From a virus (lineage: Duplodnaviria > Heunggongvirae > Uroviricota > Caudoviricetes), in IMG/VR virus record IMGVR_UViG_2700989509_000016: a stretch of 6,977 nt of DNA, one strand, 5' to 3'. Under the pieces are notes generated by a model, which saw nothing but the letters and a program-made list of their open reading frames with translations, had not been told where the DNA came from and did not search any database. This document shows, piece by piece, positions 1,320 to 4,300 of this stretch. Position 1 is the stretch's first letter. Each line of letters starts with the position of its first letter. The position numbers were made by a program, and so were the translations under genes.

Positions 1320-4300
1320 TCAGCTGATACTGATACCTGCTGTGGATTTTTTCATCACCACAACCAGCAGATCGCTGATACTGGTTGTTGGTGTCCAGTT
1401 ATTCGCTCCTGATGAAGATACGGTGAATGTCAGTGTCAGCGTCCCCTGTCCGGCAGGCATATCTATAACTGAGGAAAATACGCCCTGAGCATCCGTCGTG
1501 GACTGATTAAAAATCTCCTGACCATTGCGGGTCACTCTTAACCGGCAGGTTGAATACCAGTATGACTGTTGGTTATTACTGTTGAAATTCTCATGCTTAC
1601 CACCGCGGAATAACACTGGCGGTATCATGACCTGCCGGTCAAATTTCTGATCATCACTGATTCTTACCGTGATGGTGCCACTGGCATAACTGTTCGTGCG
1701 GGGGAAAGACTTGCTGACCGTTTTGACAATATCGCCTTCAATCTGATTGGCTGACAGTTTCCCCTTAATCTGACAGTTCTCATTAATCGTGACGTTGTTG
1801 AGCGTCCCGGAGTTCGCATTCACACTACCACTGATATCCGCATTTTTAGCAGTCAGCTTTCCGTCCGGTGTCAGGGAAAATGCCGGAGGACTGCCACCAC
1901 TGGTAATGGTGGGGGCCGTCAGGCGCTTCAGGAACACGTCGTTCATGAATATCTGGTTGCCCTGCGCCACAAACATCGGAGTTTCATTCCCGTTTGCCGG
2001 GTCAATAAACGCGATACGGTTAGCGGCAACCAGAAACTGGCTCAGCTTGCCTTCCTCCGTGTCCTCCATGCTGAGGCCAATACCCGCGACATAATGTTTG
2101 CCGTCTTTGGTCTGCTCAATTTTGACGCCCCACATGGCATTCCATTTATCGTTAGCGTCCTTCCACTCTTTCGAAAACTCATCCAGTCTGCTGGCGTTAT
2201 CCTCCGTCAGATCGACTTTTTCCAGCAGCTCCTTGCCGAGATGAGATTCGGTTATCTTGCCTTTGAAAAAATCCAGATAACCTTCCGCATCATCGCTCGC
2301 CCGACCGACGGCCTCCACGAATGCCGATTTGCCAACAGTGTTCACACTGCGGATATAAAAGTAATAATCATGGCCCGGTTTGATATTGATACTGGCGGCT
2401 ATCCAGTACAGCCCCGTGCCAAGGTAGCGGGCTGTGGTTTCAACCTGCCTGATATCGGTAATCCGCTTTTCCGAGAACCAGAACTCAAACTGTACCGTCG
2501 GATCATAAACCGCAAGATGCGGCGTGGCGGTTATCTGAAAATAGCCCGGTGTCAGCTCAATCCGAGACGGCGCTGCCGGTGCGGCAATCCGGAACGATAC
2601 CGATGCCGGATCGCCCTGCTGTCCCCACGCATTTACCGCCCGGACTGTCAGCCTGTAGTTCCCCAGCGCCAGTTGCGTGAAGCGGTATGCGGTTTCCGTC
2701 GTCCGGGCCGTGCTGACCAGCCGCTCACTGCCGTCATCCGCTGCCACGGTCAGGCGAAGCATAAAGCTCACCCCCTTCACCACCTTCGGCGTATCCCAGC
2801 GCGCCAGCACCTGATATTCCCCGCTGTCTGCGGTGACTTCGGCAGTCAGGTGCTGCACCGCTGGTGGCGTGACACCGTTCACCGTGCCGCTCTGGTCGCC
2901 GTCAAAGTGCGCCCCGTTATCCACGATGGCTTCTTTTTCCGGTACATGCTGCACGGCGGTGATGGCATACGTACCGTCATCGTTCTCACGGATACTCACA
3001 CAGCGGAACAGGCGCTGGCGCAGCGTCGGCAGCTTCAGCCCCCACACGCTGTATTCGGCAACGCCGTCAGGAACACGGCTCACTTTCACCTTCACGCCGT
3101 CGGTGACGGACTGGACCTCCACGCTGACCGGATTGCCATTTCCGTCAACCAGGCTTATCAGCGTGGTTCCGGAGGATGGCAGCATGATTTCACGGTCGAG
3201 CGTCAGTGTCCGGGTCTGGCAGTTTACCGCAAGCACGCGCCCGCCGACGCTGATACCCGCATAGTCATCATCGCAGATTTCAATGACATCGCCCGGTACA
3301 TGGCGAAGCCCTTCTGCGCCCACGCTGAAGTCCACAGTCTGCGTTTCCAGCAGCTCCGTTTTAATCAGCCACAGCCCGGCGCGGTGTGCCTGCCCCCGGC
3401 TGGTACAGCCAAAGGCATCCATCTTCGTGACGTTACGACCGTAACGGGCAATGGCCTGCGTGTCCTCCACAAGCTCTGTTGCCGTCTCCCAGCCGTTGTC
3501 CGGGTCAATCCAGTTCACCTCAACGGCATTATGGCGGTCCTTCAGGGCGCTGAAGCTGTAGCGGAACGGCGCGTCATCATCCGGCATCACCACATTACTG
3601 CGGTTATAGGTCCACACCTTATCCGACGGTCGGTCCTGCACGAACGTCAGCGTCTGCCCGTTCCATACCGGCATACAGCGCATCGCCGAGCAGAAATCAC
3701 TGAGCACATCCCACGCCTTTCGCTGTGTGGTCAGGTACGCATTACAGGCGATGCGCGGCTCCGTGCCGCCAAAGCCGTCCGGCACCGACTGGTCGCAATA
3801 CTGGCCGATGACATACAGCGCCCATTTGTCCACATCCGCCGCACCAAGACGTTTCCCCATGCCGTAGCGCGGATGGGTCAGCATATCCCACAGACACCAT
3901 GCCATATTGTTGCTGTATGCCGGTTTAAACGTCCCGTCCCAGATACCGCTGTATTGCCGCGTCTGCGGGTTATAATTCGACGGCACCTGCAGAATACGCC
4001 CGCGCAGATGATAATTACGGCTCACCTGCTGGCTGCCGAACTGCTCCGAGTCCACCTGCACGCCGACCAGTGCCGTGTTCGGGTAGCACTGTTTCACATC
4101 GATGATTTCAGTGTATGACGACCAGAGCGTTTTGTTCTGCAGCTGGTCTGTGGTGCTGTCCGGCGTCATCCTGCGCATCCGGATGTTGAACGGGCGCGGC
4201 GGCAGGTTACCCACCACCACCGAGGCCAGATACTGCGAGGTGGTTTTGCCCTTAATGGTGATGTCTTTTTCCGTCACCCAGCCACCGTTACGTTGTATCT

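Follow-up and report, generated by a model that had tools for sequence, protein, structure and literature searches.

The J gene and its C-terminal domain

We analyzed a 6,977-nucleotide stretch of DNA from a tailed phage (Caudoviricetes; IMG/VR record IMGVR_UViG_2700989509_000016), hereafter the window, which is the entire 6,977-bp draft contig JZEB01000022.1 (GCA_000965715.1). According to the open reading frame (ORF) list and Pfam, the tail genes K, I, J, lom and stf all lie on the minus strand of the window, in lambda order. The subject of this study is J and, more specifically, its C-terminal receptor-binding domain (RBD). Sequence comparison with characterized proteins makes it very probable that this RBD allele, gained by recombination in the conserved NADISG...NENC motif, binds OmpC, a trimeric porin, and not LamB. 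The parts of J are listed below, with the names of hub, shaft and beta-prism fibre taken from the lambda structure paper (PMC11101478).

1320..4718, minus strand: J, tail tip / central tail fibre protein gpJ; intact ORF of 1132 amino acids, the same length as lambda gpJ
1800..4718, minus strand: lambda-like part of J, residues 1-973 (hub domains, FNIII/Ig domains, helical shaft, beta-prism fibre)
1762..1844, minus strand: J junction, residues ~959-986, site of J allele recombination
1323..1799, minus strand: divergent C-terminal block of J, residues 974-1132, with the putative OmpC-binding Ig-like RBD

The Pfam domains of J occur in lambda order and all score above their curated cut-offs (FNIII-A_GpJ, Phage-tail_3, Ig_J, Ig_J_second, Phage_Tail_Tip, Ig_GpJ_C). 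By this domain architecture and by the K-I-J-lom-stf context, the window J is a lambda-type tip attachment protein. At the nucleotide level it is 96.8% identical to J of phage PhiR30_1.

A first-pass annotation, made by a model from the sequence, had drawn attention to positions 1320-1780 as a divergent receptor-binding region on an otherwise lambda-like J. The position holds, with the correction that the gene runs on the minus strand: the segment 1320..1780 contains the last ~153 J codons and the stop codon, and the last 153 residues are read in frame from 1323..1781. Two plus-strand ORFs within 1320-1780 (60 and 41 amino acids) were rejected as genes, being antisense to the strongly supported J and having no independent support.

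Divergence from lambda gpJ is confined to the C-terminus

The window J was compared with lambda gpJ (NC_001416, 15505..18903) by global protein alignment. Overall identity is 89%, and its distribution along the protein is highly uneven. Each 50-residue interval up to residue 950 is 90-100% identical to lambda, the interval 951-1000 is 80% identical, and from residue 1001 to the C-terminus identity is 38-40% with 10 gap columns. Taken as two blocks, 945 of 973 residues (97.1%) are identical in residues 1-973, compared with 71 of the 164 alignment columns that follow (43.3%; Fisher exact p = 4e-65). The divergent block begins with the changes N974S, N979A, Q983T and K985N (window residue first).

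The DNA gives the same picture. Identity to lambda J is 95.6% over J nucleotides 1-2900 and 49.8% from nucleotide 2961 to the end, placing the breakpoint at about J nucleotides 2915-2957 (window ~1762-1805); BLAST similarity to lambda ends at 1762. By tblastn, the last 153 residues are 42.7% identical to lambda, with indels, and the domain thus lacks the high identity to the lambda RBD that would mark a LamB-binding, lambda-type allele.

These results bear out the description given in the first-pass annotation, according to which the first ~980 residues of J follow lambda closely, the last ~150 diverge, and the transition lies where the divergent block is now seen to start. The lambda C-terminus that it quoted (...VQVMVIKKQALGISVV) is accurate, as is that of the window J. 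Uniformly high identity across the C-terminal 150 residues, which it had named as the observation that would overturn its claim, is not what the alignment with lambda reveals.

The divergent block matches a structurally characterized domain

The Pfam family PF12421 (Ig_GpJ_C) matches J residues 1008-1132 with 124.2 bits, compared with a gathering cut-off of 26.2 (E = 5e-36). The divergent part is therefore not of foreign type but another, diverged version of the domain that lambda itself has.

A much closer match is found in the Protein Data Bank (PDB). The last 265 residues of the window J (868-1132) and the chain named "A8 gpJ 713" (entries 9WCA and 9WCB) differ at position 943 alone, where the window has S and the PDB chain has N. 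This sole mismatch falls within the lambda-derived part of the A8 chimera described below. Residues 944-1132, which cover the entire divergent block and the entire Ig_GpJ_C domain, are identical. By sequence identity, the window RBD can accordingly be assigned to the A8-type, OmpC-binding allele.

Structure prediction of the C-terminal domain, suggested by the first-pass annotation, leads to the same entries. An AlphaFold model of the last 175 J residues (mean pLDDT 86) is predicted to adopt the Ig-like beta-sandwich fold of the solved lambda gpJ. In a Foldseek search of the PDB, the top matches to the model are 9WCB and 9WCA (100% identity over 174 residues, TMq 0.74), followed by the lambda fibre in its open state with LamB (8XCJ) and its closed state (8XCK), at 49% identity, TMq 0.68-0.70 and E = 1e-18. 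Entry 9WCB is titled as the open state of the A8 gpJ 713 central tail fiber with OmpC G17 of Escherichia coli EDL933, and a PDB search with E. coli K-12 OmpC shows that it contains three OmpC chains. Entry 9WCA is titled "Closed state of A8 gpJ 713 central tail fiber". Both were released on 2026-01-28.

Receptor evidence points to OmpC

A8 is one of two lambda gpJ chimeras constructed by Brödel et al. (Nature 2024; PMC11338833), in which lambda gpJ residues 1-964 are joined to a natural C-terminus, in this case from an E. coli strain of a private collection (PMC11338833). We compared the supplementary "GpJ A8" DNA from that study with J nucleotides 2829-3399 of the window, and 547 of 571 positions match. 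The 24 mismatches consist of 10 letters dropped in machine reading, 10 synonymous differences and 4 changes in garbled text, including one that would introduce a stop codon.

The functional data for A8 are direct. In MG1655 ΔompC ΔlamB carrying K-12 OmpC, wild-type lambda delivers to 1.9% of cells at a multiplicity of infection (MOI) of 135, and A8 to 95% at an MOI of 84 (PMC11338833). With the OmpC variant G40 as the sole change, A8 delivery is 7% at an MOI of 226, and it is also weak on the variants G56, G67 and G55 (PMC11338833). Because A8 delivers in a ΔlamB background and its delivery varies with the OmpC variant, LamB is not needed and the identity of OmpC matters.

A second line of evidence comes from a natural phage, the long-tailed Stx2a phage vB_EcoS_phi330 (phi330), whose RBD differs from that of the window only at N1009-S1010 (S-T in phi330). 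Among 54 outer-membrane knockouts in a Keio screening, phi330 failed to lyse BW25113 ΔompC only (PMC12502783), and Plac-ompC restored the phage on this strain (PMC12502783). Since BW25113 ΔompC lacks a single gene and still has lamB, the result speaks against a role for LamB as an alternative receptor of phi330.

The assignment of the window RBD to OmpC follows from identity or near-identity to these characterized proteins and not from homology at the level of the class. From a domain identical to that of A8 and two residues different from that of phi330, we infer that the full-length window J would behave as they do. Its 28 differences from lambda in residues 1-963 lie away from the binding domain. 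No evidence contradicting OmpC was found.

The first-pass annotation had left two outcomes open, a receptor other than LamB or an altered LamB allele specificity. The first agrees with the activity of the identical A8 domain in ΔlamB cells, the 9WCB complex with OmpC and the ompC requirement of phi330, while the same three observations leave the second without support. That the divergent RBD still binds LamB with altered allele specificity, or binds LamB as well as OmpC, is in our judgment very improbable. The idea draws on the proximity of the two specificities within the domain family: the phage 21 / 4A7 class, 81% identical over the last 153 residues, is reported to use LamB natively, with the single change I1025T adding OmpC (PMC11336670). 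However, the A8 chimera delivers fully into ΔlamB cells and is nearly inactive when a non-permissive OmpC variant is the only one available, phi330 forms no plaques on BW25113 ΔompC although lamB is kept, and the complex that has been solved is with OmpC.

Several caveats apply to the OmpC assignment. Phage 21, whose class is so close to the window RBD, is reported to use LamB natively (PMC11336670), and homology at the 80% level is therefore ambiguous for naming a receptor. Our reading of 9WCA and 9WCB draws on PDB titles and chain names. The sensitivity of A8 to OmpC variants means that the susceptibility of a strain depends on its ompC allele. Finally, the prophage carrying the window J may be defective, its J copy never being assembled into a virion, a point taken up with the genomic context below.

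There is also a slight chance that the window J has a receptor range beyond that of A8 and phi330, reaching a second porin or OmpC variants that A8 uses poorly, through the 28 backbone differences or the OmpC allele of the host. If so, the combination of backbone and RBD, and not the RBD alone, would determine host range.

The receptor-binding domain behaves as an exchangeable cassette

Identity to lambda falls sharply inside the conserved NADISG...NENC motif at the junction, where residues 964-982 are invariant or nearly so among 20 diverse J C-termini. The same boundary is seen in other phages: megablast matches to the window J end at J nucleotide 2957 (2B8, PhiR63_1, Perceval) or 3020 (2G7b, PhiR47_1). 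The RBDs of 2B8 and 2G7b are 44% and 59% identical to that of the window, on J backbones that are ~96% identical. Conversely, phi330 has the window-type RBD, with its two residue changes, on a different J backbone, and the 100 residues preceding the domain are only ~65% identical.

Of five phages with other RBD classes, four retain 92-97% nucleotide identity in the J-lom spacer and the 5' end of lom, on the other side of the domain, and 2G7b has 80%. Swapped backbones and domains between conserved flanks indicate that the RBD behaves as a self-contained cassette. The idea that lom allele and RBD class are inherited together as a functional pair was considered and rejected, since the J-lom spacer and lom 5' end with this 92-97% identity lie beside RBDs that are 78%, 60%, 45% and 42% identical to that of the window. 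The non-lambda block appears to extend into lom because lambda has an unusual lom; the window and lambda Lom proteins share 47% amino acid identity. Judged by these sequences, the window lom is the common lambdoid prophage allele, outside the RBD cassette, and the lambda lom the atypical one.

The mosaic pattern that the first-pass annotation had proposed for J is thus recovered in the drop within the motif, in the phi330 domain on another backbone and in the positions where megablast matches stop. Gradual change in place under selection, with no exchange of a cassette, would be the alternative origin of the divergent C-terminus. Fast evolution of RBDs in response to the host does occur, examples being the J proteins of lambda and phage 21 evolved in the laboratory (PMC11336670). 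However, the drop in nucleotide identity, from 95.6% to about 50%, takes place over a few tens of bases and is accompanied by indels; essentially the same domain sits on the clearly different backbone of phi330; and ~96%-identical backbones bear RBDs that are only 43-59% identical (2B8, PhiR63_1, 2G7b). Against this evidence gradual divergence is hardly credible, and we retain cassette exchange as the origin of the domain.

Neighboring genes and state of the prophage

The remaining features of the window are as follows, with K, I and lom all intact.

About 5321..5917, minus strand: K (NlpC/P60), from the ORF list and Pfam
4779..5420, minus strand: I (Lambda_tail_I), from the ORF list and Pfam
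1283..1302, minus strand: terminator-like hairpin with T-run directly 3' of the J stop codon, from a consensus scan
654..1253, minus strand: lom, Ail/Lom outer-membrane beta-barrel protein of 199 amino acids (Pfam Ail_Lom, E = 5e-119)
606..627, minus strand: terminator-like hairpin with T-run directly 3' of lom
589..2, minus strand: N-terminus of stf, first 196 codons (Pfam phage_tail_N), continuing past the contig edge
5969-6977, plus strand: left end of an IS66-family (ISEc8-like) element, starting at about 5970 (GTAAGCG...)
6040..6441, plus strand: tnpA of the IS66-family element
6438..6785, plus strand: tnpB of the IS66-family element

The hairpins at 1283-1302 and 606-627 flank lom, which may form a separate transcription unit. 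A terminator is annotated at the equivalent site after J in the records of phage 21 and mEp460. At the contig edge, the stf region ends in a low-complexity stretch rich in alanine, serine and glutamate, which is probably the cause of the assembly break.

An identical J is present in a second assembly (GCA_000965555.1), on the 6,057-bp contig JZEC01000025.1. Both ends of the window contig lie within repeats, the IS66-family element and stf. Upstream of K, whose start is at 5917, homology to the lambda L-K spacer extends about 50 nt, to 5968, and there the IS66-family element begins; the element thus breaks the tail operon between L and K.

This interruption raises the possibility that the J copy is inert, its RBD being OmpC-specific in principle while a defective prophage makes no functional virion. 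We lean against this view but consider it a real possibility. The insertion so close to K and the contig ending in an insertion sequence and in stf are in its favor, and many E. coli genomes contain several J copies, with up to 10 places per genome matching the 481-bp C-terminal query. On the other hand, the ORFs of J, I, K and lom are intact, the window RBD is unchanged relative to the functional A8 domain, and contig ends at repeats are assembly breaks and not evidence of truncation. In any case, inertness would concern activity in one genome and not the identity of the domain, which we continue to read as OmpC-binding.

Prevalence and implications

Among the 5,426 complete E. coli genomes, about 1,500 records carry the 481-bp C-terminal segment at a nucleotide identity of at least 95%. 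At the protein level, the window RBD is matched at an identity of at least 98% in 44 phage records, many of them from long-tailed Stx1a/Stx2a phages and one from a Salmonella phage. The window J RBD is an already published, structurally characterized and very common allele, and the finding is therefore correct but known. Binding of this domain to OmpC in place of LamB has been demonstrated by others with genetics and with cryo-EM.

The A8 domain has already been put to use in engineering, in lambda-derived particles retargeted to OmpC for gut work. For annotation, the receptor can be named at the level of the allele for genes that carry only the label "host specificity protein J". This allele being among the commonest in E. 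coli prophages, including those of long-tailed Shiga-toxin phages, OmpC variation is probably a major determinant of the strains that can be reached. The phage 21 class, 81% identical and yet reported to use LamB, cautions that class-level homology is insufficient for receptor prediction.

Proposed mechanism

By analogy with lambda and LamB (PMC11101478), a trimer of the Ig-like RBDs of the window J would attach through its bottom loops to the OmpC trimer, on the extracellular side. Upon binding, the base of the RBD trimer would spread and its top narrow, taking the fibre from the closed to the open state. New hydrogen bonds would compact and rotate the beta-prism fibre, and the helical shaft would flip; the change would travel up the beta-prism and the shaft until the tail tip opens for DNA ejection. 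The closed apo (9WCA) and open OmpC-bound (9WCB) entries for A8 indicate that the same switch operates with OmpC. For the steps past binding in the window J, we infer the sequence of events from the lambda system.

Comparison with known J alleles

Known J alleles are grouped here into classes, each with its identity to the last 153 residues of the window J and, where given, the reported receptor.

Window / A8 class: 100%; receptor OmpC
Phage 21 / 4A7 class: 81-82%; LamB natively for phage 21, OmpC after I1025T (PMC11336670)
Stx2 phage 1717 class: 78%
2G7b / Stx2a_2499 class: 59-60%; OmpC of the EDL933 type, if the Eligo chimera 1A2 belongs to this class
mEp460 / 2851 class: 42-45%
Lambda: 42%; receptor LamB

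The second Eligo chimera, 1A2, likewise redirects lambda to OmpC by means of a natural J C-terminus (PMC11338833). Unlike A8, it works on EDL933-type OmpC and not on K-12 OmpC (PMC11338833). If our reading of the machine-read supplementary DNA is right, 1A2 belongs to the 2G7b/Stx2a_2499 class, ~59-60% identical to the window RBD. In the source data, Panel C (OmpC-EDL933) repeats the numbers of Panel B (OmpC-MG1655) in its 1A2 and A8 columns, which looks like a copy-paste slip. For 1A2, the Panel C values conflict with the text of the paper as well as with Extended Data Fig. 1 (G17 data), and Panel C was not used.

The J sequence of phage 434, a classical OmpC user, was not located in the collections searched. 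The RBDs of 434, phi330 and lambda are reported to share 35-40% pairwise identity (PMC12502783), which makes 434 a different allele class. For PhiR30_1 and PhiR70_1, ECOR-derived phages with RBDs identical to that of the window, no outer-membrane receptor is given in PMC13190303, which covers ManYZ and SNIPE. A preprint (10.64898/2026.04.02.716166) was set aside as a guide to receptors, as it deals with a Drexlerviridae-type GpJ and its alignments exclude the lambda C-terminal domain.

The closest distinct allele class is represented by phage 21 J (OL657228), which shares its indel pattern with the window J. Unlike the window J, phage 21 J has 1160 amino acids, 28 more than the J proteins of lambda and the window. 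Over the last 153 residues the two proteins differ at 29 residues. By predicted secondary structure, differences fall at 20 of 88 strand positions and at 6 of 47 other positions. Non-strand segments are thus not enriched in differences, and no simple pattern restricted to loops emerged. In phage 21 and 4A7, stf directly follows J and there is no lom.

Domains 98-100% identical to that of the window over the last 153 residues are found in phi330 (PV189401), in long-tailed Stx1a/Stx2a phages, and in CP-1639, YYZ-2008, 2H10, Turner, Chlobot, PhiR30_1 and PhiR70_1. Phage phi330 departs from the window in two respects: its J backbone is of the Pankowvirus type, with divergence upstream of the NADISG motif, and window residues 1009-1010 are S-T in place of N-S. 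The A8 chimera is identical to the window J over residues 944-1132, a range that covers all of its donor-derived sequence (from 964); it differs in having lambda's own residues 1-964.

The lambda RBD (8XCJ/8XCK) shares with that of the window the PF12421 family, the Ig-like fold and the location at the tip of the trimeric central fibre. It differs in its sequence (~43% identity), in its receptor, LamB, and in indels within inter-strand segments (length differences of 5 and 4 residues). For both lambda gpJ and A8 gpJ 713, closed and open fibre structures have been solved.

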